A stretch of DNA of 64,000 nucleotides. Source: Chiloscyllium plagiosum. Its lineage: Eukaryota. Below are positions 8,411 to 62,692 of the stretch, one piece after another; the first letter of the stretch is position 1, and the number at the start of each line of letters is the position of its first letter. The DNA lies in NCBI RefSeq assembly GCF_004010195.1, contig NC_057747.1:27564727-27628726 (forward strand), in the 5' to 3' direction. The notes under the pieces are model-generated. The model was given only the letters and a program-made list of their open reading frames with translations. It was not told the origin of the DNA and made no database searches. A program made the translations under genes and the position numbers.

Positions 8411-8566
8411 TCTGTGATTTAATCAGAATAATAAATTTTAGAGTTATAAATGAATAGTTCTTTACAAACTAGGTTATAAAGCTATAATATTAACAAATGA
8501 CTTGCACTTCAAATAATGAGAGGCAAAGGAAGCAGCACTAACTCAAATCAAAGAACTGCATTAGAA

Positions 8567-8771
8567 GTAGATAAAAAACCCAAAAAACTGCAGATGCTGT
8601 AAATCAAAAACAAAAACAGAAGTTGCTAGAAAAGCTCAGCAGGTTTGGCACCATCTGTGAAGAGAAATCAGAGTTAACATTGGGTTGCTGGACCCAAAAT
8701 GTTATCTTTGATTTCTCTGCACAGTTGCTGCCAGATCTACTGAGCTTTTCCAGCAACTTTTGTTTTTGTTT
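8567..8771. mobile_element. Short palindromic PLE-terminus-derived insertion (degenerate, ribozyme core lost)
   Basis: Imperfect inverted arms (aacagaagttgctagaaaagctcagcagg / ctactgagcttttccagcaacttttgtt); 11-bp TSD CTGCATTAGAA at 8556-8566 and 8772-8782. Confidence 0.75.
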
Positions 8772-9139
8772 CTGCATTAGAACTAAGATTACTGCATTGG
8801 ATTATGTGAACAACTGATTTAAACATAATTTAAATTACTGCAAATACTCATAGATGTTTTAACCATCTAATAAATTATTTGATTGGTTTTAGTCTTTGCA
8901 AAAATTAAATGTCCGCAAAATGAATGTTCAAATAAATGAAAAATGCACAAAGATTTAATTGCATAACTTTGATAATCAAACAATAGTGTGTAGGAACAAA
9001 AACTGGTTATCCTGCCCATGAAGCTAGTCTGAAATTCCATTAAATGATATATAAATATAAGTTGATACTATGATTTAATTAACAAACATGGGCCTAACAA
9101 GTAACACTCACATTCTCAGAACAAATGTATATCAGAAAA

Positions 9140-10150
9140 GATTTACTGATCTCAATCTTTAGAATTTCAATTGACCCATATTCACAGGCTTTTTAGGGGA
9201 AGTTCCGGATATGCAATTCCTGTCGTTTAGAAATGCTTCTTGATTTTACTTCCAAACTGCCTGCCTCTAATATTAAGATTGTACCCTTGTTTTGGATTTC
9301 CTGTAATTGAATTACCTTCTCTCTAGCTAGCCAATCATCATCAAGCTTTTTCACCATTTTAAGAATTTCAATGAGATCAGCTGAAAATTCCTTCTGCTTT
9401 TCCACTGTTTCTAGTTCCAGCACTATGTGACCATCCAAATTTGCCTTTCGCAAAGCGAATGTGGATTGCTCAACATTTCTTCACACTACCACAACTCCAT
9501 CTTGTATATCTTCTCTCACCTACTAAGTCTCTGTCTCTTTGCAACTTCATGCTTCCAAAATGTACATTTCTCTATTATTCCAACCAAGTCATTACTATAG
9601 ATGGTGTAATGCTGAGAGCCGAGTACAGATTCCTCACAACCACTACCCAATACAGCTCACCAAGCAGAGATCATTCACTCTTTTCTAAAATCTGTGGCCC
9701 TTACCTCACAAGCCAAATATCAGCCAACGTAACTGAATTCTCACCAATCCAGGACACTTTTATTTTTGCTATTAATTTCTTGCAGGGAATCATACCCATA
9801 GCTTCCAGAAAACAGAAGAGGCCTTTGGTCTGAAAAAAACTGAAGCCCGTTTGACAACGTTTAAATGCATTTCCTATTCACCTTGTTACTGGTCTTAAGC
9901 AATTCAGAAAGCTTAGTCCACCATGACATACCCATCATAAATCTACAATGATACTGTTCGTTCTGAACATTTCTAGAAATTTATCCACATCTGGTGTCAA
10001 ACTGATGGGCCTGCAGTGTCCTGGGTTATGCCTCCGGCTCATCCTTAATGCAATAGCAGCATTTACAATTTTCCAATCCATTAGATTGGATTCCTTAATC
10101 TTTAGACCTTCGGAAAATTGCGCACATAAATCCAACTATATTTTCCTTTG
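9140..10150 (-). mobile_element. Decayed CR1-type LINE fragments
   Basis: Track ORF 9935..10135 (DWKIVNAA...HNPGHCRPISLT) is a CR1 RT N-terminal relic. Confidence 0.65.
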
Positions 10151-10279
10151 CCATTTCTTTACTTCAATTAAACCTAATGCCCTACTGAATCTGCTTTTAG
10201 GGTTCTTGTTGATATTTTTGAGAATTTAGATTTTTTTTCCCCCTTATTGTGCAATAATAAACAGCTATGGTCATCTTAC

Positions 10280-10426
10280 ATCTCCCAACTTGAGGCACGT
10301 TCCTAGGCTATGGATAACATCTTCAGCAAGATCAGAATGATCAGAGTCCCAGACCAGACCAATAGTAATTATCTCCGGCGAGTTCATCAACACTTTGCGG
10401 ATTCTGATCTTCTCACCACAGTTGCT
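10280..10426 (-). CDS. USP54: USP54 coding exon 7 ([49 protein letters not shown])
   Basis: 147 nt, phase 0-0; acceptor ttcctttacag|, donor GAT|gtaaga; manual translation. Confidence 0.95.
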
Positions 10427-10649
10427 CTGTAAAGGAAATCAAAAGTTATTTTTTGAGAAAAAAAGATGTAGGTAGTTCCCTCCATGATACATATAAAACA
10501 AAGACAAACAAGAACAATGCCTACTTTACACTGACAGGTCAAAATTAAGTCTGAGAGATAATTGTCAGGAGGCTGCTATTCAGCCCACAGAGTTCACATA
10601 GCTCTCAGTATAGCAATCCAATCACCCTCTTTTTACTACTTAGAACACT

Positions 10650-10790
10650 TAGAACTTCTGAAGAAGGGTCACTACACCCAAAATGTTAACTCTGCTTTCT
10701 TGCCACAGATGCTGCCTAACTTGCCAAAACTTTTCAGCAAGTTCTGGTTTTGTTTCTGATTTCCAGCATCTGTAGTTCTCAGTTTTCCTC
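10650..10790 (+). mobile_element. PLE-terminus-derived repeat with a decayed hammerhead-like core
   Basis: CTGAAGA-a-GGGT-cactac-ACCC-aaaa followed by the family tail (cagatgctgcc...ccagcatctgtag). Confidence 0.6.
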
Positions 10791-10799
10791 AAATGAGGC

Positions 10800-13140: not shown

Positions 13141-14180
13141 CTCTGACCTAACTAAAAAATACTGCAATGACATACTATCCAAACAACTTAGCATGTGTTA
13201 TAAATAAATTATCTTCCCTTTACTGGGCCACTGAGAAGGAGTGGAAAAGTTGAAGCTTCCAAACACAGTCAGTTAACATAAAGATCAAGAAAGCACCAGG
13301 TTCAACTTTCAGCCTTGGTTAAGTCAACTGAGCATTGTAATCAGGCTTAATACCCAGCCTAAAGAAGAAGTGGAAATAGGTCAACCAGCCAATATACCTA
13401 ACACCCATTCAGGACTCTCACTACTGGTGGAGTCTTCAACTGTTTGCAGAGGCTGAACAATAATCAGGCTTATTAGAAATTTTAATTAACTTGAAAAAAG
13501 TATACAGCTTGCATTGCTGAAAATTTATGAAAACTTTGAGTGCGATTAAAACAGTATAACCTGACACTTTTCCCAAATGAAATAATTGAAAACTTTCCTA
13601 CTTACAAAGATGCAAAATAATTTTAGCTGACTAAATATTGAAATTGACAAACTGTATGCTACAATTTATGTATTTGTAAGTATGAGTGGCTATCTCCACC
13701 TCATACCGCCCTAGCTTAGTGACAGAAGGTCAAAACAAATCATTATAATATACCCTGGCAGTCTCAGAACCTTTGTTTGGTGGTAATCCAAACCTTGTAT
13801 TATCAAGTCCAAACACCCAATAATGTCACTGTATTTCACTTGTATGATAAATTTATTTCCAAAAAATATGCACAATTGTTTACAATTTTCATTATAAAAC
13901 AATTAATATCTATGCTGCACAGTTTCTGCTGAGCCGGTTACTGAGATCAATAAAAGATCATTACTCATTGTGATATACACAAGCACGTTTAAATGCAACA
14001 AACACAGTTGTCACATATTTTAAACAGAGTCTTTCCATTTTCCAATTAACTATTGCCAATGATCGATTCCGAGTCAGTAGCAATTATATGCTCAGCATCA
14101 CTGCAATATACGCTAAACATTAACTTGAAGATTCATCTTCTCCTCTTCCTCCCACACGACAATATGTGCAATTTGCTGTA

Positions 14181-14579: not shown

Positions 14580-16430
14580 ATCTTCAGGAAACGTTAAGGG
14601 GACACAGGATCAACCACGGAGGAGGAACTGAAGGAAATTCTTATTAGTCAGAGTTACAAATCACACAACACCAGGTTATAGTCCAACAGGTTTAATTGGA
14701 AGCACTAGCTTTTGGAGTGCTGCTCCGTGTACTCCACAACCACCTGATGAAGCAGCAGCACTCCGAAAGCTAGTGCTTCCAATTAAACCTGTTGGACTAT
14801 AAGCTGTGTTGTGTGATTTTTAACTTTGTACACCCAATCCAACACTGGCATCTCCAAATCCTTATTAGTCAGGAAATTGTATTGGGGAAATTGATTGGAC
14901 TAAACCCTGATTAAGTCCCCAAGACCTGATGCTCTGCATCCCAGAGTACTTAAGGAAGTGGCCCTAGAAATAGTGGACACATTGATGATCATTTTCCAGT
15001 ATTGTATAGACTATGGAAGAGTTCCAATGGACTGCAGGGTAGCTAACATAACCCTACATTTTGGAAAAAGGGGGAGAGAAAACAAGGAATTATAGGCCAG
15101 TTAACCTGACATCGGTGGTGGGGAAAATGCTGGATGTAATAATTGAGCATTAGGAAAGCGGTGACAGGATCAGTCCAAGTCAGGATGCATTCACCAAAGG
15201 GAAATCATGCTTGACAAAAATTCTAGAATTTCTTTTGAGGATGTGACCAGTAGAGTGGACGAGGGTGAATATTGTGTATCTGGACTTTCAAAAGACTTTT
15301 GACAAAGCCCCACATAAGAGATGAGTAAGTAAAATTAACGGTCAAGGTATCAAAGGTAAATGCATTGACAAGGATAGAGAACTGGATCAGTGGTGCTGGA
15401 AGAGCACAGCAATTCAGGCAGCATCAATGGTTGGCAGACAGGAAATAGAGTGTTAGAATAAATGGGTTCTTTTCAGAGTGGCAGGCAATATCGATTGGGA
15501 TACCAGAGAGTTAAGTGGTAGGACCCGAGCTGTTCACAACATACATTAACAATTTGGATGAAGGAATTAAATGCAATATTGCCAAATGTGTATACAACAC
15601 TAAGCTGGGTGGCACTTTGTGCTGGGAGGAGAATGTTAAGAGGCTGTAATGCGACTTGGACAGGCTGGGCAAGTGGGCAAATACAATATAATGTAGATCA
15701 ATGAGGTTATCCATTTTGACAGAAAACAGGTAGGCAGATTATTATCTAAATGGTGGCAGTTTAGGAAAGGGTGAGGTGCAACAAGACCTGGTGTCATGGT
15801 GGAACTGTCGCTGAAGGCTGGCATGCAGGTGCAGCAGGCAGTGAGGTAAGCTAATGGCATGCTTCCCTTCATAGCGAGAGGATTTGAGTATAGTTTTGAC
15901 TCTCAGTCTGAGAAAGGACATTGTTGTTATTGACAGAATCCAGCAAAGATTCATCTGACTGATCCCTGGATGGCAGGCCTGACATATGAAGAAAGACTGG
16001 ATCAACTAGGCTTGTACTCATTGGAATTTAGAAGAATAGGGGGCAGATCTCATAGAACCGTACAAAATCCTGATGGGACTGGACAGGCTAGGTGTGGGAA
16101 GAATGTTTGGAATGCTGGGGAAGTCCAGAACTAGGGGTCATAGTCTAAGTATAAGGAGTAAGCCATTCAGAACTGAGATGAGGAAGAATTCTTTATTCAG
16201 AAAGTTGTGAAGCTGTGAAATTCTCTACCATAGAAAGCTGTTGGGGGTACTTTGTTAGATATATTCAAGGCTGAGCTTGACATGGCCCTTGTGGCTAAAG
16301 GTATCAAGAGGTATGGAGAGAAAGCGGGAGTGGGAAACTAAATTTGCATTGTCAGTCATGATCTATTGAAAGGTGGTGCAGGCTTAAAGGGCTGAATTGG
16401 CTACTCCTGCATCTATTTTCTATGTTTCTA
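14580..16430 (+). mobile_element. CR1-type LINE, 5'-truncated, decayed RT and 3' UTR
   Basis: Recognisable LHPRVLKEVALEI, NYRPVNLTSVVGKML, GKSCLT, YLDFQKTFDK motifs with stops and frameshifts; (TTCTATGT) tail. Confidence 0.85.
14652..14860. mobile_element. Palindromic PLE-terminus insertion with hammerhead-like core (family B)
   Basis: About 70-bp inverted arms; CAC-CTGATGA-a-gcagcagcactcc-GAAA-GCTA-GTG; 12-bp TSD CTTATTAGTCAG at 14640-14651 and 14861-14872, interrupting the CR1 above. Confidence 0.85.
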
Positions 16431-22419: not shown

Positions 22420-22650
22420 AAGTAGACAAGCACGAGGCTGGAAGAACACAGCAAGCCAGGCAGCATCAGAACGTGGAGAAGTCAACATTTCCGGTATTAC
22501 CTTTCAGAACATGCCTCTTACTGAGAAGAACGTAACACTTTGACTCTTCAAGTGTCATACTGGACTCAAAACATTAACTATTCTCTCTCACCAGATGCTG
22601 AGTCTTTCTAGTACATTCTGTTTGTATTTCAGATCCAGAATCCACAGTAA
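22420..22650. mobile_element. Two decayed PLE-terminus repeats, head to head
   Basis: gctggaagaacacagcaagccaggcagcatc on the left; ggactcaaaacattaact...cagatgctg on the right. Confidence 0.55.
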
Positions 22651-24810: not shown

Positions 24811-25301
24811 CTGTGAAAAAATTTGAAGTTCCATAATACATTTAGTTTTTCCCATAATTGAAAACCATTCACTCAGCAGTAAAGTTCACCACATTAACTC
24901 TCAATAGCCACATCTCAAACCAAAGCAAACCAGTAATCATAATTTTATATTTTATTATGGGATACATCAGTGACGTGAAAAAGGTTAGCCACAAGACACA
25001 CGGGGCCAGTGAGAATGCAGATGTAGCTAATCACAGTAAATAATATGCACAATACAACTAAAAAACAGACTAATGGGGACGGACCATTGTTGGCAATGTT
25101 ACCTCAGTGCTTATATTAGCACGTTACAGGTGATTCACATCAAGTGAAACAACAATCATTAAAAATAGAACACCCAACTGTTGGACAAAAACTGAGAAGC
25201 TGCACTAAGATGCTCCGTGTCGACAAAAACTTGCCCAAGTTTAAAATACAATATTTCAGATCGTTGTTGTGGTTCTGTTCGCCGAGCTGGGAATTTGTGT
25301 T

Positions 25302-25341
25302 GCAGATGTTTCGTCCCCTGTCTAGGTGACATCCTCAGTGC
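25302..25341 (-). ncRNA. Second copy of the family-C hammerhead motif, on the USP54 sense strand
   Basis: Reverse complement reads GCA-CUGAGGA-UGUCACCUAGACAGGGGAC-GAAA-CAUC-UGC (one G>A change breaks the ACGU palindrome). Confidence 0.6.
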
Positions 25342-25548
25342 TTGGGAGCCTCCTGTGAAGCGCTTCTGTGATCTTTCCTCCGGCATTTTAGTGGTTTGAA
25401 TCTGCCGCTTTCGGTTGTCAGTTCCAGCTCTCCGTTGCAATGGTCAGTATATTGGGTCCGGTCGATGTGCTTATTGATTGAATCTGTGGATGAGTGCCAT
25501 GCCTCTCGGAATTCCCTTGTTGTTCTCTGTTTGGCTTGTCCTATAATA

Positions 25549-25686
25549 GGAGAAAGTGAGGTCTGCAGATGCTGGACATCAGAGCTGAAAATGTGTTGCT
25601 GGAAAAGCGCAGCAGGTCAGGCAGCATCCAGGGAACAGGAGAATCGACGTTTCGGGCATAAGGGCTTATGCCCGAAACGTCGATTC
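25549..25686. mobile_element. Family-A palindromic PLE-terminus insertion nested in the family-C element; runs into the gap
   Basis: Near-identical to 31562-31788 and 48010-48172; perfect 22-bp arms at 25641-25662 and 25665-25686 around a GG spacer. Confidence 0.85.
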
Positions 25687-26107
25687 NNNNNNNNNNNNNN
25701 NNNNNNNNNNNNNNNNNNNNNNNNNNNNNNNNNNNNNNNNNNNNNNNNNNNNNNNNNNNNNNNNNNNNNNNNNNNNNNNNNNNNNNNNNNNNNNNNNNNN
25801 NNNNNNNNNNNNNNNNNNNNNNNNNNNNNNNNNNNNNNNNNNNNNNNNNNNNNNNNNNNNNNNNNNNNNNNNNNNNNNNNNNNNNNNNNNNNNNNNNNNN
25901 NNNNNNNNNNNNNNNNNNNNNNNNNNNNNNNNNNNNNNNNNNNNNNNNNNNNNNNNNNNNNNNNNNNNNNNNNNNNNNNNNNNNNNNNNNNNNNNNNNNN
26001 NNNNNNNNNNNNNNNNNNNNNNNNNNNNNNNNNNNNNNNNNNNNNNNNNNNNNNNNNNNNNNNNNNNNNNNNNNNNNNNNNNNNNNNNNNNNNNNNNNNN
26101 NNNNNNN
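25687..26107. other. Assembly gap (421 N)
   Basis: Run of n characters. Confidence 1.
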
Positions 26108-26272
26108 TCATGTTGCTTGTCATCTGTGTGTGTGGCTACTAAGGATAGCTGGTTGTGTTGTTTCGTGGCTAGTTGGTGTGGCTAGCTGGAACTGACAACC
26201 GGAAGCGGTAGATTCAAACCACTACAAATGCCGGAGGAAAGGTCACAGAAGCGCTTCACAGGAGGCTCCCAA

Positions 26273-26312
26273 GCACTGAGGATGTCACCTAGACAGGGGA
26301 CGAAACGTCTGC
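26273..26312 (+). ncRNA. Minimal type-I hammerhead ribozyme motif
   Basis: GCA-CUGAGGA-U-[GUC a CCU agac AGG g GAC]-GAAA-CGUC^-UGC: core CUGANGA/GAAA/UH present, helix I GCA/UGC, helix II pairs, palindromic ACGU in place of helix III. Confidence 0.75.
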
Positions 26313-27144
26313 AACACAAATTCCCAGCTCGGCGAACAGAACCACAACAACGAGCACCCGAGCTACAAATCTTCTCACAAATTTTGAATATTTCAGATCA
26401 TTATCGGAAGACCGATGTATTTCTCGCTCTGCAACAAAAATTATTCTTAGTCACTCCAGAAAACATGCATCTTCTAATCTTCAAACATAACTTTAATGCC
26501 AAATTAGTAATGTGAGATTAAAAAATGCCCTACATTTAAGTGTTCATTTGAAGAATAATAAATCAGTCAGCAAAATATGCCATTGGTTTGACATCAAATT
26601 TCACAAATATTCAGCTGTTAACGAACTCAACAAACCAGCCAAATCACGTATGTTGATTTGGCTTCTTCAACTGTCTCAATAGAAGGCAATTTGGATAAGG
26701 AAACGTTCCCAAGCAGATAATGGGAAACAGAGTCTTCAATACGGAAAGGAAACAGGACATGAAATGTTAACATCACCTTTGACTGAACTTGAAGTTAATT
26801 TGCCAAATATTACTAACTAAAATTATGACATCAAAACACTATCAATCTTTTCAATTGAAGTCACTACCAATACAAGTATCTGTGACAACAATATGATGAT
26901 CACAAAGAACTGCAGATGCTGGAAGTCAAACAAAGATGCTGGAAAAATACAGGTCTGGCAACATCTGTAGAGAGAAAACCGTTGTTATAGATATGGATAA
27001 ATTTTCTATAACACACCTGTATTATAATAATGCTTCACTTTGGGAGTAAAGTAAAAAAGGAGGAAAAGGTATGAAGCAATGTTAAGGTTTCAAATTTGCA
27101 CAACATTTTATTGACAATTCTCACTTGTCTTAAAGCCAAAGCAG

Positions 27145-27275
27145 GTCCTGAAGAAGGGTCATGGCTGAAATGCTGATTGTCTTGCTCCTTGGATGCTACC
27201 TGATCTGCTGTGCCTTTTTCCAGCACCACACTTCAACTCTGATTTCTCCAGCATCTGCAGTCCCCATTGTCTTCC
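27145..27275 (+). mobile_element. Decayed family-A PLE terminus
   Basis: CTGAAGA-agggtcatggct-GAAA followed by the ctccttggatgct...ttccagcaccacac tail; a further partial antisense copy lies near 26905-26980. Confidence 0.6.
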
Positions 27276-31561: not shown

Positions 31562-31788
31562 GAGAGAAAGTGAGGGCTGCAGATGCTGGAGATCAGAGCT
31601 GAAAATGTGTTGCTGGAAAAGCGCAGCAGGTCAGGCAGCATCCAAGGAACAGGAGAATCGACGTTTCGGGCATAAGCCCTTCTTCAGGAATCCTGATTCC
31701 TGAAGAAGGGCTTATGCCCGAAACGTCGATTCTCCTGTTCCTTGGATGCTGCCTGACCTGCTGTGCTTTTCCAGCAACACATTTTCAG
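31562..31788. mobile_element. Young family-A palindromic PLE-terminus insertion with a hammerhead core in each arm
   Basis: 95-bp arms at 31598-31692 and 31695-31789 with one mismatch and a 2-nt spacer; 16-bp TSD CATGCCACATATCATC at 31546-31561 and 31789-31804. Confidence 0.92.
31695..31732 (+). ncRNA. Minimal hammerhead motif (family A); mirror copy on the - strand at 31655-31692
   Basis: GAUUC-CUGAAGA-A-[GGGC uuau GCCC]-GAAA-CGUC^-GAUUC; helix I pairs 4 of 5 with a U.U mismatch (the copy at about 62085 has the fully pairing GAAU). Confidence 0.65.
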
Positions 31789-32555
31789 CATGCCACATAT
31801 CATCCTGACTTTGAACTATAATTGTAATTTCTTCACTGTCATTAGATCAAAAGTCTGGATCTTCTGTCTGAACAACACTGTGGGACTGCCTGTGCCATAT
31901 GGACCAAATCAGTTCAAGATGATGATTCACGAGCAACTTCGAGAGCAATTGGGGCTGAAGAGTAAAAGCTGGCCTGGTCAGTACAGTCTACATTCCTTAA
32001 AGTGAATAAATGAAGAAAATGTAAAATTACAAATTCACTGCTGTAACATTTCTCATACTGTTTCCAATGATGGATGGATGTGAAAATCAAGCATGTTTTA
32101 GCGTGCAATACAACAGAAAAGGTATTGACATTTTCCCAACAGTTTCTTGTCACAGAATATAATTTTGGTTCACAGGCATAGCTCACAGAACAAAATTCTG
32201 AAGTCAGTTTGCTTATGGAATTCTTCTTGTGAAATTTATTCTTGATCACAAAAAGGGTCTTAATGCCTTTAAGGAGAAAACAGTACATGTTAATTTAGCT
32301 TTTTTTCCAAAAGTTCTCAGAAAAAAGTTGAAGTGCTGTGAAATTAATTTTTTGTGTCGATCATCTCTGCTGTTTCATTTGCTCTTCACTGATTTGAAGT
32401 GGCTTTGACTGCAGTCCAGTATGGTCCCAATGACTTTTAAAGATGTAATTTAAGCAGATTGCTAAGTCAATTTTTCAATATAAAATTAATTGTTGGGTTG
32501 CCATTTTCAATTCAGATGTTTTTGTGAACGTACAATTATATCAACTAAGCATATT

Positions 32556-32692: not shown

Positions 32693-32809
32693 CAACTAAG
32701 CATATTTTACATGATAAGTGAACTCGAGGGTTTGGATACAACTGTCCCACAGTTATGATATGAACTTCAAACTGCACGAACTGCAATTCTTCAGGACTGT
32801 AAAAACAAA

Positions 32810-32965
32810 GATGCTTAAGATATGAAACAAAATTAGAAATTGCTGGACAAACTCAGGTATGGCAGCACCTGTTCTGAAGCAAGGTCATTGCAACCAAACA
32901 TGAACTCTGCTTTCTCTCTGCAGATGCTGCCAGACCAGAGTTTCTCCAGCAATTTCTGTTTGTGT
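32810..32965. mobile_element. Decayed palindromic PLE-terminus insertion
   Basis: agaaattgctgga ... tccagcaatttct inverted arms around a decayed ttctgaagcaaggtca core. Confidence 0.6.
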
Positions 32966-32999
32966 TGTGATTATGTTTATTGGCTGGAATTATCATAAT

Positions 33000-33330: not shown

Positions 33331-33340
33331 AATTCTAGAA

Positions 33341-34599: not shown

Positions 34600-34607
34600 C
34601 TGAAAAT

Positions 34608-36560
34608 CATAGAACATAGAACATTACAGCGCAGTACAGGCCCTTCGGCCCTCGATGTTGCGCCGCCCTGTCATACTAATCTGAAGCGCAACCCACTGAC
34701 ATGATTCCGTGTACGTCCATTTGCCTGTCCAATGACGACTTCAATGCACTTAAACTTGGCGAATCTACTACCGATGCAGGCAAAGCATTCCATACCCTTA
34801 CTACTCTCGGAGTAAAGAAACTACCTCTGACATCTGTCTTATACTTATCGCCCTTCGCTTTAAAGTTGTGTCCCCTCGTGTTTGTCGTCCCCATACTTGG
34901 AAAAAGGCTCTCCCTGTCCACCCTATCTAACCCTCTGATTATCTTGTATGTCTCTATTAAGTCACCTCTCAACCTTCTTCTCTCTAACGAGAACAGCCTC
35001 AAGGCCCTCAGCTTTTCTTCGTAAGACATTCCTTCCATACCAGGCAACATCCTAGTAAATCTCCTCTGCACCCTTTCCAAAGCTTCCACATCCTTCTTAT
35101 AATGCAGTGACCAGGACTGTACAAAATACTCCAAGTGTGGCCGTACCAGAGCTTTGTACAGCTGCAGCATAACCTCCTGGTTCCGGCACTCAATCCCTCT
35201 ATTAATAAAGGCCAAAATACTGTATGCCTTCTTAACAACCCTGTCAATCTGGGTGGCAACTTTCAGGGATCTGTGTACATGGACACCGAGATCTGACACC
35301 AAGATGAACATGTTCCATCAGCTACAACCCTCTGTTTTCTTTCAGCAAGCCAATTCCTGATCCAAACTGCTATGTCTCCCACAATCTCATTCCTCTGCAT
35401 TTTGTATAATAGCCTACTGTGGGGAACCTTATCGAACGCCTTGCTGAAATCCATATACGCCACATCAACTGGTTTAGTTTCATCTACCTGTTTGGTCACT
35501 TTGTCAAAAAACTCAATAAGGTTCGTTAGGCACGACCTACCCTTCACAAAACTGTGCTGACTGTCCCTGATCAGATTATTCTTTTCTAGATGGTTATAAA
35601 TCCTATCTCTTATAACCTTTTCCAACACTTTACCAACAACTGAAGTGAGACTCACTGGTCTGTAATTACCAGGGTTGTCTCTACTACCCTTTTTGAACAA
35701 GGGAACATTTGCTATCCTCCATTCCTCAGGCACTATTCCTGTAGACAATGATGATTTGAAGATCAATGCCAAAGGCTCGGCAATCTCTTCCCTTGCTTCC
35801 CAGAAAATCCAAGGATAAATCCCATACGGCCCAGGGGATTTCTCTATTTTCACACTCTGCAGTATTTCTAATACCTCTTCCTTGTGAACCTCAATCTCTT
35901 CTAGTCGAGATGCAAGTATCTCTGTATCTTCCTCACCAACATCTTCATTTTCTATAGTGAACACTGTCGAAAAATATTTATTTAGTGCTTCCCCTATCTC
36001 CTCTGACACTACACACAACTTCCGACTATTATCCTTGATTGGCCTTAATTTAACTCTCGTCATTCTTTTATTCCTGACATACCTATGGAAAACCTTAGGG
36101 TTAACCCTGATCCTATCCGCCAACAACTTCTCTTGACCCCTCCTGGCTCTTCTGAGCTCTCTTTTTAGGTCTTTCCTGACTTCCTTGTAACCCTCAAGCG
36201 CCCTAACTGAGTTTTCACATTTTGTCCTAACATAAGCCTTCTTCTTCTTGACCAGGGATTCCACTTCCTTAGTAAACCACGGCTCATGCGTTCTATATTT
36301 TCCTCCCTACCTGATAGGTACATACTTATCTAGGACACACAGGAGCTTTTCCTTGAATAAGCTCCACATTTTTAATGTGCTCATCCCCTGCAGTTTCCTT
36401 CCCCATTCTACGCTTCCTAAATCTTTCCTACTTGCATCGTAATTTCCCTTCCCCCAGCTGAAACTCTTGCTTGGTGGAGTACACCTATCCCTTTCCATCA
36501 CTAAAATAAACCTGACAGAATTGTGATCGCTGTCTCCAAAGTGCTCACCATCAGTTGTGA
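34608..36560 (-). mobile_element. Relatively young CR1/HER1-type LINE, 5'-truncated, with an internal RT deletion
   Basis: Track ORFs 36307..36573, 35263..36264 (KSPGP, NYRPVSLTSVVGK, GRSCLTNLIEFF, YMDFSKAFDKVPH) and 34676..35311; (TTCTATG) tail. Confidence 0.93.
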
Positions 36561-36849
36561 TAACTCTAGCCAATAAATATAACCTTCAGAACTGCAACTC
36601 ATTCAGTTTGAGTTTTTCATTTTGACTCTAAGATGGTTGCATACTCAAACCTTCGAGTTCAATTACATCATGTGAAACATATTTTCTTGGACTAATATAC
36701 TTAGCTGCATCCACCACAAAAAAAACAAAAGTTTAAAATCATAATCTAACTCAGGTAGCGAATGTTTTGCCCTCATTCAAAAAGGGCTACAAAGAAAAAC
36801 TGGTAAGCCTAACCTCCATGGGAGGAGAGGTCTTGACATCAGGGAGATA

Positions 36850-37385
36850 GGATACCAGCCTGCAAAACCTTTCAGGCAACATCTCTGGGACACACGCACC
36901 AAACAACCCCACTATTCTTTGGCCGACTACTTCAACTCCCCCTCTCACTCCCCAAGGACATGCAAGTCTTGGGCCTCCTCCACTGCCAAATCAAAGTCAC
37001 CCGAGAACTGGAGGAAGAATGCTTCATCCTCCATCTTGGGACCCTTGAATCACATAGCATCAACATCGATTTCACTAGTTTCCAAATTTCCCCTTACCTT
37101 ACCTCATCCCGGATCCAACCCTCCAACTCCTGGCCACCTCCTTCCCACCTACCTATCATAATTACCCCTCATCTGCATCTACCTCTGGCCTCCCCCTCCC
37201 CCCCCCCCCCCCAACCTCACCCTCTAATTTATCTCTCAGTCCCCTTCCCCCTCCACATTGCTGATGAAGGGCTTGTACCTGAAACATCGACTCTCCTGCT
37301 CCTCAGAAGCTGCCTGACCCGCTGTGCTTTCTCAGCGCCACACTTTTCAACTCTGACTCTCCAGCATCTACAGTCCTCATTCTCT
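36850..37385 (+). mobile_element. Penelope-like element 3' fragment: GIY-YIG C-terminus, 3' UTR and family-A terminus
   Basis: Frameshifted FRQHLWDTRTKQPH..LADYFNSPSHS / MQVLGLLHCQIKVTRELEEECFILHLGTLESHSINIDFTSF, then CTGATGA (37261-37267)...GAAA-CATC and the family-A tail. Confidence 0.82.
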
Positions 37386-37925
37386 CTTGGATATATCTGG
37401 TCAGGACCAGGAGATTTATGCACCTTCATGCATTCTAATACGTCTAACACCTCCTCTACTGTGATATGGACTGTCCCCAAGATATCACCACTAACTTCCC
37501 CAAGTTCCAAGTCCTCATGTCTTTCTCCAAGGTAAACACAAAGGAAAAATACTCATTGAAGACCTTGCCCACCTCCTGTGGTTCCACACATACATGTCCA
37601 CTTTGGTCTTTGAGGGGTGCTATTTTCTCTCTAGTTATTCTGTTTCCTTTAATATACTTAAAGAATCTCTTTGGATTCACCCTATTCTTCTTAGCCAAAG
37701 CAATCGTGTGCCCCATTTTCACCCTCCTGATTTCCTTCTTCAGTAAACTCCTGTATTCCCTGTATATCTCCAGGGATTCTCTTGGTCCCAGCTGCCTGTA
37801 CCTGAGTCATGCCTCCTCATCGTTTTCTTATCAAGGCCTCAATATCTCATCATCTAGGTTCCCTCCTCCTGCCAACCTTGCTCTTCACCCATACAGGAAC
37901 ATACAGACCTTGAACTCTAGCGATC
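37386..37925 (-). mobile_element. CR1 ORF2 internal fragment
   Basis: Track ORFs 37456..37722 and 37229..37510 (NPKRFFKYIKG, KSPGPDQIYPR). Confidence 0.85.
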
Positions 37926-39529
37926 ACTAACTCTAGCTACTGTATTGCAATTTTTATTTTTAAAAATTTGAAACTTCATGACATTAAAAAAATCTAATCC
38001 ACCATTTAAATGCTAGAGGAAAAACCAAAATTAATATACGCACTTGCACATTTGGTTATTCTCCCTGCAATCAGACTGACAAGAGCCAAAAGCAAATCAA
38101 CACGACAAGAATTTGGTCTCCAATGAAAGAACTTGCAAACAAGTTATACATTCCATCTGTGTTTTGAAATATTTATCAAGAGTATTAAGTTTGAGCATAT
38201 TGTCAAAAACATGAAATTTGCACTGTATTGACTCTGCACACTTTGGCCCAACAATCAACAAAGACTTGGTAACATTATCCAAATAAATAATCAGGTCAAT
38301 TCTTTTAGAGGAATTAAGTCCTATATCATTTCAAATTCACAATATAAGACAATAATCTTATTACCATTGCTTAACCTCCTGTAGCACAAACATGTCACAG
38401 CTGAAGTAGTTACCAAAATTACCTCATTCCCCCCCCCCCCCACTGTAATGCATCAGTTTCTGTCAATATTTGTTTATAACTAAATTAAAACACCTCTGAA
38501 TCAGTGAATGCTTAATTCAGTAAATTCAAGTATGCGTAGTCAAAAATTTTGAATTAAAAGTAGCATTTCACAGCTTCAGCTTGAGATGCATTTTGAATGT
38601 CTTCAATTACTAAAACAACATGAGTACTCTTGTTCAGAACAAACACAGCTATTAAATGGGTGCATAGAGCCCTATGCTGAAGTGCATGAAATTGGTCCAA
38701 ACCTAAACTGGATTAACCACTGGTAAAAGTAGCCCTTACTGGATCCTGCCTCTTTCACCATTTTTAAAATTGCTGGAATAATAAGCTCAAAAAAGGATAT
38801 ATTTCCATTAAAACTTGAATGGAGGTTCGAAATGCCTTCTGTTTAACAATTTTGACGCTCAATGTACCAGTAATGTTTTCAGTTTCCAAATCATAGTTCA
38901 GTTTATACTGTACCTCTAATGGCGCATTAAACACATGCAACCAACCACTGCAGCAGTATTGCTGGCAGGTCCTAAGTCTGTAATAACAGTCTAAATTGTT
39001 GATTAGTTCTACAGACGCAGAATAAGTACGTTCATGAGGATTTTTCATTATTTATAATTACAAATCCCCAAAGACTTATTACTGTCTGGTTAAACATGTT
39101 TCTTTTGTACTGAGCAAGCCAATAATCTACGACTGGTAACATCTGTGTTACAAGCAATTCCAAGAGTTGATAGGTCTCAATATTAAGCTCTGTCCAGCAA
39201 CATGGTAGGGCCCACAGTTACATTTTCAAACTCAGAAGTCACACGACACCAGGCTATAATCCAACAGGATTATTTGAAATCACACGCTTTCAGAGCACTA
39301 CTCCTTTGTCAGGTGGAGAGAAGCACTCAGGCATCATCTTATTTTTGATTATTTGTAGAAGGGTCTGTTTCCATGTTGTACATCTCTATGACTATCTCTC
39401 TACATTAATGTGTTCATAGGCCATCCTTTTATTTGTTATTCAGCTGTTGACACTTTACTCACACCGTTTGACACTTTTGATCACCTGCAAAAGCGATCAG
39501 CCTGTCAGCACGCCACTCACACTATTTAC

Positions 39530-42500
39530 CTATGTGCTCACAAGTCGTGGTTCAAGTAAGTACCAATGACACAAGTAGAAAGAAGGACAGGGATGTAAGG
39601 CAGGATTTCAGGGAGCTAGGGTGGAAGCTGAGAGCTAGAACAAATATAGTTGTTATCTCTGGTTTGTTATCCATGCCATGTGATAGCAAGGCGAGGAACA
39701 GGGAGAGATATCAGCTGAACACGTGGCTGCAGGAATAATGCAGGAAGGAGGGTTTCAGGTACATGGATAATTAGGGCTCATTCTGGAGAAGGTGGCACCT
39801 CTCCAACAGAACGATCTTCACTTGAACCAGAGGGATACTAATATCCTGGGTGGGAAATTTGCTTGTGCTATTCGGGTGGGTTTAAACTAGCTCAGCAGAG
39901 GGATGGGAACCAGTGGTGTAGTTCCAGTGCACAGGAGGATAGGAGTAGGGAGGACAGGGACAGGCTTTCAGTCACAGGACTGTGCTGGCAGACAGCAAGC
40001 TGGTTTGAAGTGTGTAGGTGAGTTTGAAACATGGATAGGTATGGGACTTCGATATTGTGGCCATTTCGGAGACATGGATAGGGCAGGGTCAGGAATGGAT
40101 GTAGCAGGTTCCAGGGTTTAGATCTTTCATTAAGGTGGTAAAAAGAGGATGTGTGGCTTCGTTAGTCAAGGACAGTGTAATGGTGGCTGAAGGAACTTTT
40201 GACGAGGACTGGTCTCCTGAGGTGATAATGGCTGAGGTTAGAAACAGGAGAGGAGACGTCACACTGCTGGGAGTTCTTTTTTTTCATAGGGCTCCACAAA
40301 ATTCCAGGGAGGTGGAGGAGAGGATAGGGTAGGAGTGAAAGGAACCAGGGTGGTTATTATGGGGGACTTTAGCTTCCCCAACATTGACTGGAAACACTAT
40401 AAATCTAATACGTTGGATGGATCAGCTTTTGTCCAAAGTGTACAGGAGGGTTTCCTGACACAGTGTCGAAGGGCCGACAAGAGCGGAAGCCACACTGGAT
40501 CTGGTGTTTGGTAATGAACCAGGCCAGGTGTTTGATTTAGTGGTAAGTGAGCACTTTGGACAGAGTACCATAATTTGGTTACATTTAGTGATGGAAAGGG
40601 ATAGGTACATACCACAAGGCAAGAGTAAAAGACAGTGAGGGGGGGGAGCAATTGTAATGTGATTAGGCAAGACTTAGGAAGCATAGAATGGGGTAGCAAA
40701 ATGCAGGGGATAGGGATAATCAAAGTGTGGACCTGGTTTAAGGAAGTGATGTTGCATGTCCTTGATAGGTATGTCCCTGTCAGGCAGGGAGAAAGTGATA
40801 AGGTAAGGGAACTTCAGGTTTACTGAAGAAATTGTATCTCTTGTTAAGTGGAAGAGGGAGGCTTGTGATATTGAGACTAGATGGTTCAGATGAGGCAATG
40901 GAGAGAGAGTTACAGATTAGCTAGGAAGGATTTAAAGAGAGAGTTAAGACGACCAAGTAGGGGACATGAGCAGTCTTTAGCAGGTTGAATAAAGGAGGCC
41001 GTGAAAGCTTTCTATAGGTATGTGAGGAATAAAAGGATGACTGGGTAGGAATAGGGCCCATCAAAGACAGAAGTGGGAAGTTGTGTGTGGAGCGTGTGGA
41101 GATCAGAGAGATGATAAATGAATATTTCTCATCTATTTTCACTCAAAAAAAGGAGAATATTGCAGAGGGGAAGACTGAGATACGAGCTATTAGACTAGGA
41201 AGGATTGAGGTTAGTACAGAGAATGTGTTATCAATTTGAGAAGGTGTGAAAGTAGAAAAGTCCCCTGGGCTGGATGGGATTTATCAGAGGATTCTCTGGG
41301 AAGCTAGGGAGAAGATGGCAGAGCCTTTGGCCTTGATCTTTGAGTCATCATTGTCTACAGGTTTAGTACCACAGGATTGGAGGATTGCAAATGTTATGGC
41401 TTTGTTCAAGAAGGGCAGCAGAGATGACCCAGATAATTACAGACCAGTGAGTCTTACGTCTGTTGTAGGAAAAGTTTTGGAAAGGATTATATGAAATAGA
41501 ATTTATAAGCATCTAGCAAGAAACAATTTAATTGGAGATAGTCAACATGGTTTTCGTCAAGGGCAGATCATGTCTCACAAACCTCTGATTTGGAGATGCC
41601 AGTGTTGGACTGGGGTGTACAACCACAACCACCTGATGAAGGAGTGGCACTCCGAAAGCTAGTGCTTTCAATTAAACCTGTTGGACTATAACCTGGTGTT
41701 GTGTGATTTTTAACTTTGTAAACCTCATTGAGTTTTTTTGAGAAGCTGAGCAAGCATATGGGTAGGGCAGTTGACGTGGTGTACATGGACTTCAGTGAAG
41801 CCTCTGATAAGGTTCCAGATGGTAGGCTTTTGGAGAAAGTGCAGTGGCATGGGATGGAGGGTGATTTAGCAGTTTGGATTAGAAATTGGCTTTCTACAAG
41901 GCAGCAGCGAGGGATGATTGATGGAAAATATACAGCCTGGAGTCCGGTGTGCCAGAAGGATCTGTTTTGGGACCACTGCTGTTTGTCATTTTTATAAATG
42001 ACACGGATGCAGGCATAGGTGGATGGGTTAGTAAGTTTGCAGATGACACTAAAGTAGGTGGTGTGGTGGACAGTGTGGAAGAATGTTGCAGCTTACAGGG
42101 GGACTTGGATAAACTGCAAAATTGGGCTGAGGGGTGGCAAAAGGAGTTCAATGCAGATAAATGTGAGGTGATGCACTTTGGGAAGAATAACAGGAAGGCA
42201 GAATACTGGGTCAATGGAAAGATTCTTGGTAGTGTGGATGTGCAGAGAGATCTTGGTATCCATGTACACAGATCCGTGAAAGCTGCCACCCAGGTTGATA
42301 GTGCTGTTAAGAAGGCATACAATGTGTTAGGTTTTACTGGTAGAGGGATTGAGTTCCTAAGCCATGATGTCAAGCTGCAATTGTACAGAACGCTAGTGCA
42401 GCCTCACTTGGAATATTGTGTACAGTTCTGGTCGCTCCAGAAGGATGTGGAAGCATTAGAAAAAGGTAAGAGGAGATTTACCAGGACGTTGCCTGCTCTG

Positions 42501-42923
42501 GAGCAAAGGTCTTATGAGGAAAGGCTGAGGGACCTGGGTCTGTTCTCATTGGAGAGAAAGCGGCTGAGGGAATTTAATAGAGACATACAAGATGATCAGA
42601 GGATTATATAGGATGGGCAGTGAGAGTCGATTTCCTGGGATAATGACGTCGGCTTGTACGAGGGGACAAAGCTGCAAATTGAATGGTGATAGATTTAAGA
42701 GATGTCAGAGGCAGGTTCTTTACTCAGAGAGTGGCAAGGGCATGGAATGCCCTGCCTGCCAATGTAGTGAACTCAGCCACATTAGGGGTATTTAAAAAGT
42801 CTTTGGATAAGCAGATGGATGATGATGGGATAGTGTAGGGGAATGGGCTTAGATTAGCTCACAGGTCGGTGCAATATCGAGGGCCGAAGGGGCTGTTCTG
42901 CGCGATATTGTTCTATGTTCTAT
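39530..42923 (+). mobile_element. Long CR1-type LINE: ORF1 esterase-like remnant, APE endonuclease, RT and 3' end, all disrupted
   Basis: VVVQVSTNDT...VVISGLL...LNTWLQE (SGNH-type ORF1 domain), IMGDFSFPNIDW (endonuclease), PEGSVLGPLLF / SKFADDTK (RT), TTCTATGTTCTAT tail. Confidence 0.93.
41586..41719. mobile_element. Family-B PLE-terminus insertion with an intact hammerhead-like core, inside the CR1 RT
   Basis: CAC-CUGAUGA-A-[GGAGU ggc ACUCC]-GAAA-GCUA^-GUG; 7-bp TSD AAACCTC at 41579-41585 and 41720-41726; removing it restores GRSCLTNLIEFF. Confidence 0.85.
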
Positions 42924-43329
42924 TTATACTTACCTGTTAACACTCTTATTTACCTGAAATTACCTTGCCATTATCTCTCTGCCTATATATTCTGTGCCTG
43001 TGCGCTTCCATCCACTTTGCTTGATGAAGGAGCATTGCTCTAAAAGCTCAAATAAACCTGTTGGACGGTAACCTGCTGTCATGAGATTTGTGACTTTGTC
43101 CAACCCAGTCCAACACTAGCACCTCCACATCACAGTTCAGGTGTCATTGGAGAGGAGTTCAAAAAATAGAGGCAGAAACTGAAGGTCAGTAAGCATTTCA
43201 AGACAAAGAGTAGACTCCATGTTAGAATAGCTGACTTTTAGTTGCATTGCAGGGAAGGCAATTCAACTTTTCAAGGTCTGTGGGGAGGATACAATGAGTA
43301 AATCCCAAGAACACCGAACAAACTGCAAT

Positions 43330-48009: not shown

Positions 48010-48172
48010 AGGGAGAAAGTGAGGTCTGCAGATGCTGGAGATCAGAGCTGAAAATGTGTTGCTGGAAAAGCGCAGCAGGTCAGGCAGCATCCAGGGAACA
48101 GGAGAATCGACGTTTCGGGCATAAGTCCTTCTTCAGGAATCCTGGAGAAGGGCTTATGCCCGAAACGTCGAT
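48010..48172. mobile_element. Young family-A palindromic PLE-terminus insertion
   Basis: Near-identical to 31562-31788 with a shorter right arm; fold-back centre CAGGA-A-TCCTG; 12-bp TSD TCTCTGCACTCA at 47998-48009 and 48173-48184. Confidence 0.9.
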
Positions 48173-48769
48173 TCTCTGCACTCAGGGTCTAACAACGTAT
48201 ATGGAACCTTTGAAGGAGCAGGAAATCAGGCAGTTCTTTTAACTGCCCAATCAATCACTGTTCTCAAATGTTCATGCCAGCATGAACTGATTAACATCAG
48301 TCTCCAATGAAGTATCATCTGTGACATGTGACAGAGCTCCCATTTTTCTAGTTCTGGGAGCTGCTCACATCACTATGGCGTAAAATGGGGAGGGTACTCA
48401 GTCAGATGGCTCATTTCAACAAAGATGCTTATGTCCAACCAAGAATGCCCACAACATTCTTGAACATTCTGCTGTCATGGACAACGAACAAATTGGAGAT
48501 GACATGTCCACTATCACTTCAGAGATGAACATTTTGGCGAGTTGGAGGAGAGCCAAATGAAGAGCTAATTTCTACTCTCACTAGAAGGTTTTTGTTTTAT
48601 TATTCAGAGGGTTGTGAATGTTTGGAATTCTCTTGTCTGCAGGGCTACGGAAACTCAATTATTGAGTTTGTTGACAGTAGGAATGGACACGTTTCTAAGC
48701 ATTAAAAACAAAGGGATTTGGGGATAATGTGAGGAAAAAGGCATTGAAGTGTATGATCATTCATGATAC

Positions 48770-59300: not shown

Positions 59301-59371
59301 AGTTAAGATTGTAATTCAGCTGTATATGTATATCCTACATAAATAACCATGCATTGACCAGAACTACTCAC

Positions 59372-59515
59372 CTGCAATGCACTGTTGAGAAAGCAGCTAT
59401 TTTGCCCAGGCGCATTCATCAGTCCCTTACTTGCTGCAATAGAGGTTGTGCTCCGTGGCAAGAACATATCCTGAAGGTTATTGTTTGGTGTGAAATAGCC
59501 CTTCCTCCAGGACAT
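59372..59515 (-). CDS. USP54: USP54 coding exon 1 (start codon; MSWRKGYF...[12 protein letters not shown], Cys box)
   Basis: ATG at 59515-59513; 48 codons resembling the vertebrate USP54 N-terminus (MSWKRNYF...[13 protein letters not shown], recalled); donor CAG|gtgagt; catalytic Cys codon TGC at 59395-59393. Confidence 0.95.
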
Positions 59516-60384
59516 CTTGGCTGACGTCTTTTAGAATTTGATATTAAATGTTCTATAATAGAATTGCCTTTTTTTTCAACACTTAACCAAAAGAAAAAAA
59601 AACTCATATTGAATCACAAAAGAGAAGCTTAATGTTGATTAGGCAGTCCCTCAAATTGCCATTAAAAATCACAGTAGGGAGCAGACATTCACTAGTCACT
59701 ATTTGTAGTTCCATGATGAAACTATAGATCAAAAGTAGATTCCAAGCCAATGTTTTCTTTTGTACAGCACAAGTTTTAAAACAGTCTCTCACATAGCTTC
59801 ATTCTGTTTTTGAGTAACTTGTCCCAAATCTCTGTGCAGCATGGTGCAAGGAGTTGCTTAAATTCTGAATTCAACCACAGTATCGTGAACTCGCAGAACT
59901 GGAATTCAGCTTTCACAATGTCAGAGTGAAATTTCTTCACTCACACTCTTAAGTGGATATTTCCATCACTTGGCGAAAATTAAAAATCCAAAGAGAGTCA
60001 TAGTTGTAAAGAACTCGGCTTTCAGTACAATTCTTCAAATACTGTAAACACAGCACCACACAAAGATCTTTTAAAAACACAAACAAGCCAGCTTCTGCCA
60101 GAACACTTGGAAGCGTTGCGTCATGTACTCATTTGTTCAGTGTTCTGCCAAGCATTCTGGCTCGCCTATGATTAAGCTTCCTTGATAAGATAGCTATAAA
60201 CTCATTGTTTTGAACCTGTAGCCACAATCTCCACGGTACATCTTAATCCTTTTCGAGATCATTAATCAACTGTTTGAAGGTTTATATGGGCTATGTCAGC
60301 GTACTCTGACCAGATTCGCTTCCCCAGTGGAATCTGCTCATCTGCTAAACTGCTTGGATCAGCTGCTATTCATTTGACAAAGGT
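59516..60384 (-). other. USP54: Candidate 5' UTR part of the first USP54 coding exon
   Basis: Strong acceptor tgttttttctttctgtttacag| at 60386-60385; a weaker alternative tttttcttttggttaag| lies at 59583-59582; no recognisable TE in between. The true acceptor cannot be decided from sequence alone. Confidence 0.4.
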
Positions 60385-62077
60385 CTGTAAACAGAAAGAA
60401 AAAACACATTAGATTGTTTCCCATTGGTTACTTGTATAGCTCAGTGGTGGTAAAATTTGATTTATTTAATTTCAGCAATTTGTACAGATTCTGGGTACAA
60501 TGTCTGAAATGTATTCTCACACTGCATACATCCATTAGCATTATGCTGCAGCTTCCATGAAGCATGTCATCCTAAAACAAAACAAAATCAATTTTTACAA
60601 AACCTAACTCAATGTTTTCAAAAAACAGCAATTCATTTATCCAATGAAAGTAAAATTGCTCACACTTTCTTAAAGCATGTCAGCCTCTACTGCAAACAAT
60701 TGACGCTTTAAATATAATGACTCAAACACCAGCGACAGACAGCAAGTCACACCATAATGAGGTCATCAGTAATAATATTTGACTACACCAGTTGTACTGT
60801 GAATACGCGCCCAAAGCACTCCACATACTTAGCAACACCAGATAAAATTTGCAGAAGAAACAGGGCTGCATTTAAATATCAAGGTAAAACATCCCTGTCA
60901 ACTTAAACCTTTGTGAGCATTGATGGCATACAGAATCAATTACCAGGAGCCAGAACCTAGTAAAGGGAGACAACTAAACATGTATTGTCATTATCTCCAT
61001 AATGCAGTAACTGCGTCATTTTCACACATATGTCTGCTCAGCTTCCTTACTGTTACTTCAGTAACTTCTCTCAGCCATTTGTACCCACATTTCTGAACTA
61101 AAAACAAGATGAAACTGAATAATGTTTCGAATTTTTAAAAACATTTCTTGGACAAAAAATGTCTGACATGCTCATTCTAAGTAGTCTGCTCCAGAGAAGT
61201 TTTTTCTTTGCTTAATTCAAATTTATAGATAGAGTCAGCATAGCAATGTCAATAACATTGTGAAAGGAGAATTTAGTGTTCATAAACTGACTTCATATAA
61301 TATGAAAGAAGCAACAAGGAATTAAGATCAGACTGTACTTTGTATTTTATTTTCCACTGATGTTGGCAACAAAAACACCTTGGATTACTGTTATGAGAAT
61401 TGTATAACACATTCAGCCTTCAAGCTGAAAATGCTACCACTGATAATGTAATTGAATCTAAATTGAAAATAATTCTCCAGTGTTCTTTTTCCGCCAGATT
61501 ATGTACCACAGATTCCAGCAGATTAATGAGAACTTTACTTAATCTGCCCTCCATTTTTCACCAATTTAAACATAATAATTTTATAATAAATATTTTCACT
61601 ATGTACCCATTTTTGTAATAATGGTAACAGACCATCAGTACAACCATGCCTCATTTTGATCCTGCATATCTAACAGACAGTTCCACATTGTTCCATCTCT
61701 TAACTGCAATACCTGAAAATAGCTATGTACTTTGCTATCCTCATGTGATCTCAGTAGCTGGAATGAGTCTTTTTAAACCAGATTTAGTAGATTTAAAACT
61801 GTTTGTTTTAATGGTTTTTACATACACGAAAGCAATTAATTGGCAGAACATGAATTACCAAACAGGATGCAACTTCCCAAAAACATTGGTCAGCAAGGAG
61901 AAGGTTTAGTTTCACGGACAAGAGTTATAAAGTGACTTTGCCTTTGTTTACACGTTAGATTTTAAAACTGAACATATTTCAACTTTGCTGCATACCTTCA
62001 ACCAGATTGTTTAGGAAGAACATTGACACAGGAAGAGGCCAGGCTGACCTGTACATCAACTCAATTTACTTTTACTT

Positions 62078-62150
62078 GCCTGTGCCCGAAACGTCGAATC
62101 TTCTGTTCCCTGGATGCTGCCTGACCTGCTGTGCTGTTCCAGCAATAAAG
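62078..62150 (+). mobile_element. Family-A PLE-terminus fragment (3' half of the hammerhead)
   Basis: GTGCCC-GAAA-CGTC-GAATC...GGATGCTGCCTGACCTGCTGTGCTGTTCCAGCA. Confidence 0.75.
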
Positions 62151-62519
62151 TTTCAGTTTTGTCCAAATTCCTTGACAATGTTACCAAACAAAAATCAAAA
62201 AATTCCATCCTAATTGACTGGCAGAAGGATTAGAGGGGGAAATGAAAAAGTATTTTTCTCCAGTGAATAGTCAATGTCTGAAATCTGTTGCCCAGTTTTG
62301 TAATTGAGATAGAACCTGTGAACCTATTTAAAAGCTACCTGAAGCAATGTAACCTGCAAGTCAACAGTGCTGGCAAGTGGGATTAGAATGGGCAACTCAT
62401 TTATTTCAGCTGGTGCAGACATGATGGGCAGAATGTCTACGTTTTATAAAATAACTTTTCCATGGTTAAACATTTCAATGAACCCAAAACAAACAGCTTT
62501 CTTTGAGGGGGGGAGGCAA

Positions 62520-62692
62520 ATTACTGCAGATGCCGTAATCAGTATTGAAAACAAAAAAAATGCTAGAAGCTACAGCAGGTCAGGCAGCATCAGAGCTGAT
62601 GAAGAATGAGCTAGACTCGAAATGTTAGCATGCTCTCTCTCTCCACGTATGTTGACTGACCCACTGTGATTTCCAGCATTTTTTGTTTTCAG
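62520..62692. mobile_element. Decayed palindromic PLE-terminus insertion with hammerhead-like core
   Basis: aaaacaaaaaaaatgctagaa / ttccagcattttttgtttt arms; GCTGATGA-agaat-GAG ctaga CTC-GAAA-TGTT-AGC. Confidence 0.65.

Follow-up and report, generated by a model that had tools for sequence, protein, structure and literature searches.

The 64-kb stretch of the Chiloscyllium plagiosum genome analysed here (GCF_004010195.1, NC_057747.1, positions 27564727-27628726, referred to below as the window; genome size 3.56 Gb) mostly covers introns of USP54, a gene on the minus strand, and raises the question of what the short, hammerhead ribozyme-bearing repeats scattered along it are. A first-pass annotation had described them as at least three families of separate non-autonomous, ribozyme-processed elements exploiting the machinery of Penelope-like elements (PLEs), with roughly 15 insertions in one gene. 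The repeats of families A, B and C proved to be the terminal repeats (pseudo-long terminal repeats, pLTRs) of three Penelope-like retrotransposons encoding a reverse transcriptase (RT) and a GIY-YIG endonuclease, and the short copies of families A and B are likely dead cDNAs that ran off the capped 5' end of an RNA.

The three families were recovered with the stems and palindromes originally assigned to them. Family A has helix II GGGC/GCCC followed by GAAA-CGUC, family B has helix II GGAG/CUCC, GAAA-GCUA and helix I CAC/GUG, and family C has CUGAGGA and helix I GCA/UGC. The features of the minimal PLE hammerhead were present, namely CUGANGA, helix II, GAAA, a palindromic helix III and a short helix I, and motif positions are numbered below with the C of CUGANGA as 0. 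A strict hammerhead descriptor returned 66 matches in 80 unselected 10-kb stretches (800 kb, placed at random) compared with 1-4 in five shuffles, and three matches in the window compared with 0-1 in 20 shuffles. Exact patterns were matched genome-wide 31,736 times for A (a 34-mer of one A subfamily), 6,149 times for B and 3,987 times for C, and reversed controls gave none. An Rfam search of the window returned no hammerhead, only sub-threshold microRNA matches on the hairpins. Self-cleavage is a prediction, and single motifs of A (z -0.9) and C (z -0.4) folded no better than shuffled sequence with B being marginal (z -1.9).

Seventeen insertions were counted in the window, or one per 3.8 kb, close to the number first given. 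Most of these lie within USP54 introns, but those at 62078 and 62520 lie upstream of the first coding exon that was located. The stems vary between families around a shared core as proposed, but the core itself has been kept less well than was thought, with CUGANGA and GAAA both in register in 10 of 25 arms and the stems and palindrome of an intact hammerhead also retained in only four of them (31687-, 31700+, 41633+ and 26276+).

The A, B and C repeats were identified as pLTRs of coding elements because each family continues upstream into an open reading frame (ORF) for RT and GIY-YIG. This substantiates the suggested tie to Penelope-like machinery but lends no support to the view of the families as separate non-autonomous elements. 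Two window copies, one of family A (36832..37386) and one of family C (25261..26395), still hold endonuclease codons. For family A, locus L292 contains a 754-amino acid stop-free frame without undetermined bases (N), in which an RT, a C-x4-C-x2-C linker and GIY-YIG run into the A repeat. A peptide search identified 48 GIY-YIG loci, including two duplicate pairs and the window's own copy, and a sense A repeat was located downstream of 46 of these, mostly by about 200-250 nt; the repeat was also downstream at all 20 long-frame RT loci, many of them across assembly gaps. In family B a 600-700 nt untranslated region (UTR) connects the repeat to the GIY-YIG C-terminus and the repeat was downstream at 16 of 20 GIY-YIG loci. 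Loci L324 and L336 carry RT, GIY-YIG and the B repeat in that order with no N, and the RT and GIY-YIG motifs and their order in L310, L314, L324 and L336 were identified by eye and by tblastn. No ORF was found upstream of the B2 repeat among the loci examined. The C repeat was downstream at 26 of 30 RT loci, with L143, L164 and L170 featuring a repeat-ORF-repeat arrangement and L150 and L158 an RVT_1 match and a YIG motif. A CX2-5CxxC linker precedes the endonuclease in L292 (A) and L310 (B) and is absent from L150 (C), so that A and B appear Neptune-like and C Poseidon-like (PMC8557442), although the linker cannot tell Neptune from Nematis. Assembly gaps interrupt many long PLE copies (L141-L170, L281-L300) and full-length elements are consequently under-represented in the assembly.

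The ends of the insertions were mapped in the 80 unselected stretches, which contained 104 A, 25 B and 11 C insertions. The 5' end fell between -10 and +2 in 49 of the A insertions (21/54 when young copies were taken alone) and in 11 of the B insertions, but in none of the C insertions, and the shared boundaries anticipated by the first-pass annotation therefore exist in A and B and not in C. The rate at which A copies stopped in this interval was 0.053 per nt against 0.003-0.011 in the remaining bins as far as -300, and only six of the 104 extend past -300. At least 6,606 A copies reach -10 in one UTR variant. The 3' ends of A and B grouped in two modes approximately 35-40 nt apart, at about +88 and +127 in A, and 29 of the 104 A insertions were head-to-head hairpins, features that are both usual for PLEs. 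Truncation in family C is simply random. Upstream of CUGANGA, C carries a TATA-like box at a distance of about 58 nt and an initiator-like site at about 33 nt, together with an ATG at the start of helix II (L143, L164, L170; window 26200-26275), and the few C copies that begin near -31 to -39 may mark a start-site boundary for that family.

The boundary peak corresponds to the first base of helix I, some 32 nt before the cleavage site predicted at +28, and not to that site. A cluster of 5' ends near the cleavage site (11/104 at +25..35, from BLAST-based ends) was lost under strict mapping of young copies, which left 2 of 60 arms at +22..+36, and the predicted site lies in a decaying CpG-rich run. 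Head-to-tail hammerhead arrays were absent from the window, the genome not having been screened for them, and a few sense duplications were seen outside it (L221, L287).

The A reference reads TCATTC at -6..-1, which we take to be the initiator consensus TCA(+1)TTC with A(-4) as +1. Genome-wide, in contexts selected so as to avoid the most frequent junctions with the inverted arm, A(-4) was preceded by G in 759 copies and by A or T in 581, against a background G/(A+T) ratio of 0.30 (binomial p 5e-151). For a control class one base further in, starting at -3, G preceded three of the 100 matches listed of 3,419. The possibility that this base derives from a UTR variant having G at -5 was discounted, since the upstream UTR was absent at 29 of 30 G-class loci and present at only one. 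At some G-class loci the target site or inverted arm also has the G, and at others neither does. In family B a G precedes A(-8) in both copies of the -8 class and in two variant copies, which is a small sample. Copies that lead into an ORF were also identified. The repeat of L403/L265 starts at -8, spans the ribozyme and the tail and reaches an ATG at +164, the RT lying downstream, L352 begins G-ATTC and continues for 109 nt into the same body, and L221 is a third 5' repeat-to-ORF junction with UTR upstream. Depth of RNA reads climbed about fivefold across the boundary and the largest upstream group of loose ends among those listed was at -4 (96 reads with mixed flanks), both as expected from read-through of short genomic copies.

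The shared start and the extra G suggest that the short copies are likely run-off copies of the capped 5' end of the element's own RNA and not separate parasites. Briefly, transcription would start, with capping, at A(-4) within the initiator-like TCA(+1)TTC, and the element's own RT would prime at about +88 or about +127 in the 5' or the 3' repeat. Starts in the 3' repeat would yield long copies with variable truncation, while those in the 5' repeat would yield a copy of 90-130 nt that stops at the cap, with the cap copied as G. Where both nicked strands were extended, the two cDNAs would join head to head to form a hairpin. Under this scheme the RT would copy RNA that has not been cleaved, and selection on the ribozyme would be limited to source elements. 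Earlier reports describe internal RT starts that match the tail ends and the use of unprocessed RNA as template for an anole PLE in vitro (PMC11167929), an internal promoter in the pLTR of Drosophila Penelope (PMC2377424) and an untemplated G in L1 that was interpreted as a copy of the cap (PMC9341517). A broader proposal, which we hold to be about evenly balanced, is that Neptune-type elements mass-produce solo repeats by RT priming in the 5' repeat and run-off at the cap, with capped uncleaved RNA as the in vivo template, and that a subfamily such as the one termed A-prime below may spread without a coding partner.

Several observations weigh against the run-off explanation and the coding assignments. 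The putative transcription start is read from DNA junctions, and the boundary spreads over several bases, with the -3 class (3,419) exceeding the -4 class (1,340) in comparable contexts; the -3 excess apparently arises through microhomology with the inverted arm, raising C and T and lowering G in that control. The G was already in the target site or inverted arm at several G-class loci, and an RT adding a base at any template end would give that G as well. The junctions found between a 5' repeat and an ORF number only three (one at -8, one with G at -4 and one with upstream UTR), none of them for family B, and C is without a boundary peak. The RNA reads contained no pile of molecule ends among those listed, in libraries incapable of showing such ends or circular RNA. 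Pfam matched L292 to RVT_1 but placed its GIY-YIG just below the cut-off (21.7 vs 22.6), and the B RT and endonuclease pieces were unrecognised. The DNA is moreover compatible with RNA transcribed from a complete element as well as with RNA started by the promoter of a 3' or solo repeat and copied in trans.

An alternative is that solo repeats are transcribed from their own internal promoter and copied in trans by PLE protein as true non-autonomous lineages resembling short interspersed elements (SINEs), without ribozyme processing. Short copies do greatly outnumber long ones, and an internal pLTR promoter (PMC2377424), trans action of pLTRs (PMC3846280) and non-autonomous PLEs (PMC8557442) are on record. 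A comparison of 149 short and 46 UTR-bearing A arms, with five ambiguous arms excluded, argues against such lineages for most of the family. Nine haplotypes had at least three short copies, of which six were found exactly among UTR-bearing copies and two were one site away, and the main A haplotypes thus lack the subfamily structure of their own that a separate element should have. The ninth, A-prime, which includes the copy at 62083, differs from the closest UTR-bearing haplotype at six diagnostic sites and favours this alternative, as it has eight short copies, one ambiguous copy and none with a UTR. However, 45 RNA reads run upstream from A-prime into one UTR-like sequence (agreement 0.93 in one run, possibly from one locus and from another species), a motif that was not in any locus examined. 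In addition, the template of the anole element needed about 55 nt past the RT starts (172 nt of ORF vs starts at 111-118; PMC11167929), which is absent from a solo copy. We consider SINE-like lineages of this kind unlikely. At L185:8597-8700, contigs from two runs skip an A-prime insertion (102 nt, 7 shared letters), and this empty site indicates that the insertion is recent or polymorphic.

Core nucleotides had been expected to outlast their flanks if the repeats were ribozyme-processed families, but the core decays as fast as the invariant positions of the flanks. In 69 A copies recovered through their 3' part, non-CpG core positions were off the majority in 4.1% of cells and flanks in 8.4%, with the flank excess located in subfamily-diagnostic columns and the remaining flank columns approximately as constant as the core. 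The corresponding values for 19 B copies were 5.3% and 7.8%. Since the core is about as constant as the non-diagnostic flank columns, selection on the hammerhead appears to have acted in source lineages and the copies to have decayed afterwards.

It is similarly improbable that priming at the 3' repeat followed by ordinary 5' truncation accounts for every copy, with the peak produced by RT stalling or microhomology near helix I and unrelated to a transcription start. The random truncation of C, the microhomology at many junctions and the heavy 5' truncation typical of PLEs (PMC8557442) are in keeping with this view. Stalling at a folded ribozyme would nevertheless be expected on its 3' side and not at its first base, and truncation leaves unexplained both the G at -4 but not at -3 and the ORF-leading copies with the same start. 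Excision of retrozyme monomers by two hammerheads followed by circularisation and reinsertion is highly improbable, for although, according to bioRxiv 10.64898/2026.07.22.740005, retrozymes of vertebrates originate from pLTRs and occur in one cartilaginous fish, and a small BLAST-based group of ends fell near the cut site, that group was lost under strict mapping to a site in a decaying CpG-rich run, the window holds no tandem arrays, and the copies include the whole ribozyme rather than cut-to-cut units.

Inspection of the individual insertions, listed in the table below with their target site duplications (TSDs), altered several of the original calls. The A copies at 25549 and 62078 had been taken for hammerheads and both are without CUGANGA. 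Positions 25302 and 26273, given for family C, are two arms of one insertion that has the A copy at 25549 nested inside it. Those at 39235 and 43015, grouped with 41586, are the arms of a single insertion split by a CR1 long interspersed element (LINE), which itself contains the 41586 copy. At 37250, listed among the family A mini-elements, the repeat comes after approximately 250 nt of GIY-YIG codons and a 3' UTR. A TSD of 7-16 nt was present at 7 of 14 window insertions tested. Both arms of the hairpin at 31564..31789 begin G-ATTC at -4 and both of its hammerheads are intact. The B2 insertion retains UTR pieces at 39331-39357, 39400-39470 and 42920-43017 and both of its cores are mutated.

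Table. Penelope-like insertions and a host exon in the 64-kb window
Feature	Position	Strand	Details
Family D (older, related) hairpin	8586..8790	.	Joined in loop II, no core; 7-nt TSD
USP54 exon	10280..10426	-	Match to PDB 8c61, E 2.6e-26
Family D copy	10655..10780	+	CUGANGA retained, GAAA mutated
Family B hairpin	14649..14860	.	Plus arm with both boxes and a helix II mismatch; 12-nt TSD
A-related pLTR 3' fragment without hammerhead	15378..15430	-	New relative to the first-pass annotation
Family F (older, related) copy	22420..22515	-	Decayed core
Family C (Poseidon-like), single insertion	25261..26395	-	Minus main arm with GIY-YIG remnants 25390-25547 and 26110-26178; 12-nt TSD
Family A hairpin inside the C insertion	25550..25686	.	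Junction in loop II, without CUGANGA; continues into N gap 25687-26107
Inverted arm of the C insertion 25261..26395	26180-26395	+	Intact hammerhead at 26276
Family D 3' fragment	26908..26990	-	New relative to the first-pass annotation
Family A copy, old, with tail	27146..27272	+	Both boxes kept, helix II decayed
Family A head-to-head hairpin	31564..31789	.	Minus arm with tail, plus arm without; 16-nt TSD
Family D hairpin	32809..32966	.	Decayed core
Family A element, 5'-truncated	36832..37386	+	Frameshifted GIY-YIG C-terminus 36832-37082, C-rich 3' UTR, decayed hammerhead 37261, tail
B2, single insertion interrupted by CR1	39223..43128	.	Inverted arm 39223-39316, sense arm to ~43125; 7-nt TSD
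Family B copy, short inverted tail	41575..41720	+	Intact hammerhead at 41633; within CR1 LINE
Family A hairpin	48013..48176	.	Main minus arm with helix II mismatch, short plus arm with core change; 12-nt TSD
Subfamily A-prime short copy	62083..62160	+	Begins in helix II, without CUGANGA
Family E (older, related) hairpin	62523..62690	.	Both boxes in plus arm; 11-nt TSD

The older families related to A number at least three (D, E and F), each with its own helix II and with UTR-like upstream sequence in some copies elsewhere. PLE copies often lie within or beside other PLE copies, as for A in C in the window and A in GIY-YIG remnants elsewhere (L113, L023, L219 and L084). Further USP54 exons, placed by short motifs that we presume to be diagnostic, are located near 59395, 55018-54940, 27563, 24729, 18273, 5856 and 4969, all on the minus strand. 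A USP54 intron of approximately 27 kb (roughly 27650-54930) contains six of the insertions and large CR1 pieces. Many CR1 LINE pieces occur in the window, including fragments with RT domains at 34676-36306 (minus strand) and 39480-42935, and as the CR1 block interrupts the B2 insertion and itself carries a B copy, the order of insertion was B2, CR1, B. Cleavage of host pre-mRNA by the intronic hammerheads was considered unlikely, as 31687- is the only intact arm of the four that has the sense orientation of USP54, and this arm sits within a 95-bp hairpin that is 99% complementary.

These results touch on how PLEs build their insertions and on the role of the PLE hammerhead in vivo. If the run-off explanation is true, tens of thousands of short insertions record that transcription begins at the first base of helix I and that the template is capped and uncleaved. 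They also serve as a warning to annotators that short repeats with two fixed ends are not necessarily a SINE-like family.

The arrangement of hammerhead-bearing PLE end-repeats is itself known, and the possibly novel part is the boundary and the junction G, for which no report in PLEs was found in a literature search that left subscription journals mostly outside. Published work on PLEs already covers minimal hammerheads whose helix III is palindromic, together with solo copies, copies paired on opposite strands and optional tails (Cervera 2014; Craig 2021; Frangieh 2024). The PLE pLTR hammerheads of Cervera and De la Pena 2014 (PMC4209133) share with those of the window the type I minimal core, the extra base before helix II and the palindromic 15.2-16.2, and likewise form several covarying families per genome that occur mostly as single copies and as opposite-strand pairs. 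They differ in number, with about 4,000 and 9,000 motifs in coelacanth and frog compared with the 31,736 exact 34-mers of one A subfamily here, and in helix II, which is shorter in A and B of C. plagiosum, and neither boundary peak nor junction G is described in the accessible text. The endonuclease-bearing (EN+) PLEs of Craig et al. 2021 (PMC8557442), Neptune for A and B and Penelope/Poseidon for C, have the same RT followed by a C-terminal GIY-YIG, with clades likened by motifs and not by a tree. They also share the Cys linker of A and B and its absence in C, 5' truncation, an inverted 5' copy, an optional 30-40 bp tail and TSDs. In the green anole Poseidon element PAc (Frangieh et al. 2024, PMC11167929) two RT start sites likewise correspond to ends with and without tail, the ATG is at the start of helix II as in family C, and the available text gives no sign of cleaved RNA as template. 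The ATG of family A differs in being located after the tail (+164), and in the same text the solo repeats of PAc are not derived from priming in the 5' repeat and no cap-like G is reported. Animal non-LTR retrozymes (PMC7229834; bioRxiv 10.64898/2026.07.22.740005) are also short, hammerhead-bearing and pLTR-related with dispersed monomers common, and are defined by head-to-tail units each with a hammerhead, canonical motifs and, in the cases studied, circular RNA, whereas the window copies occur singly or head to head, have minimal motifs and are continuous with coding elements.

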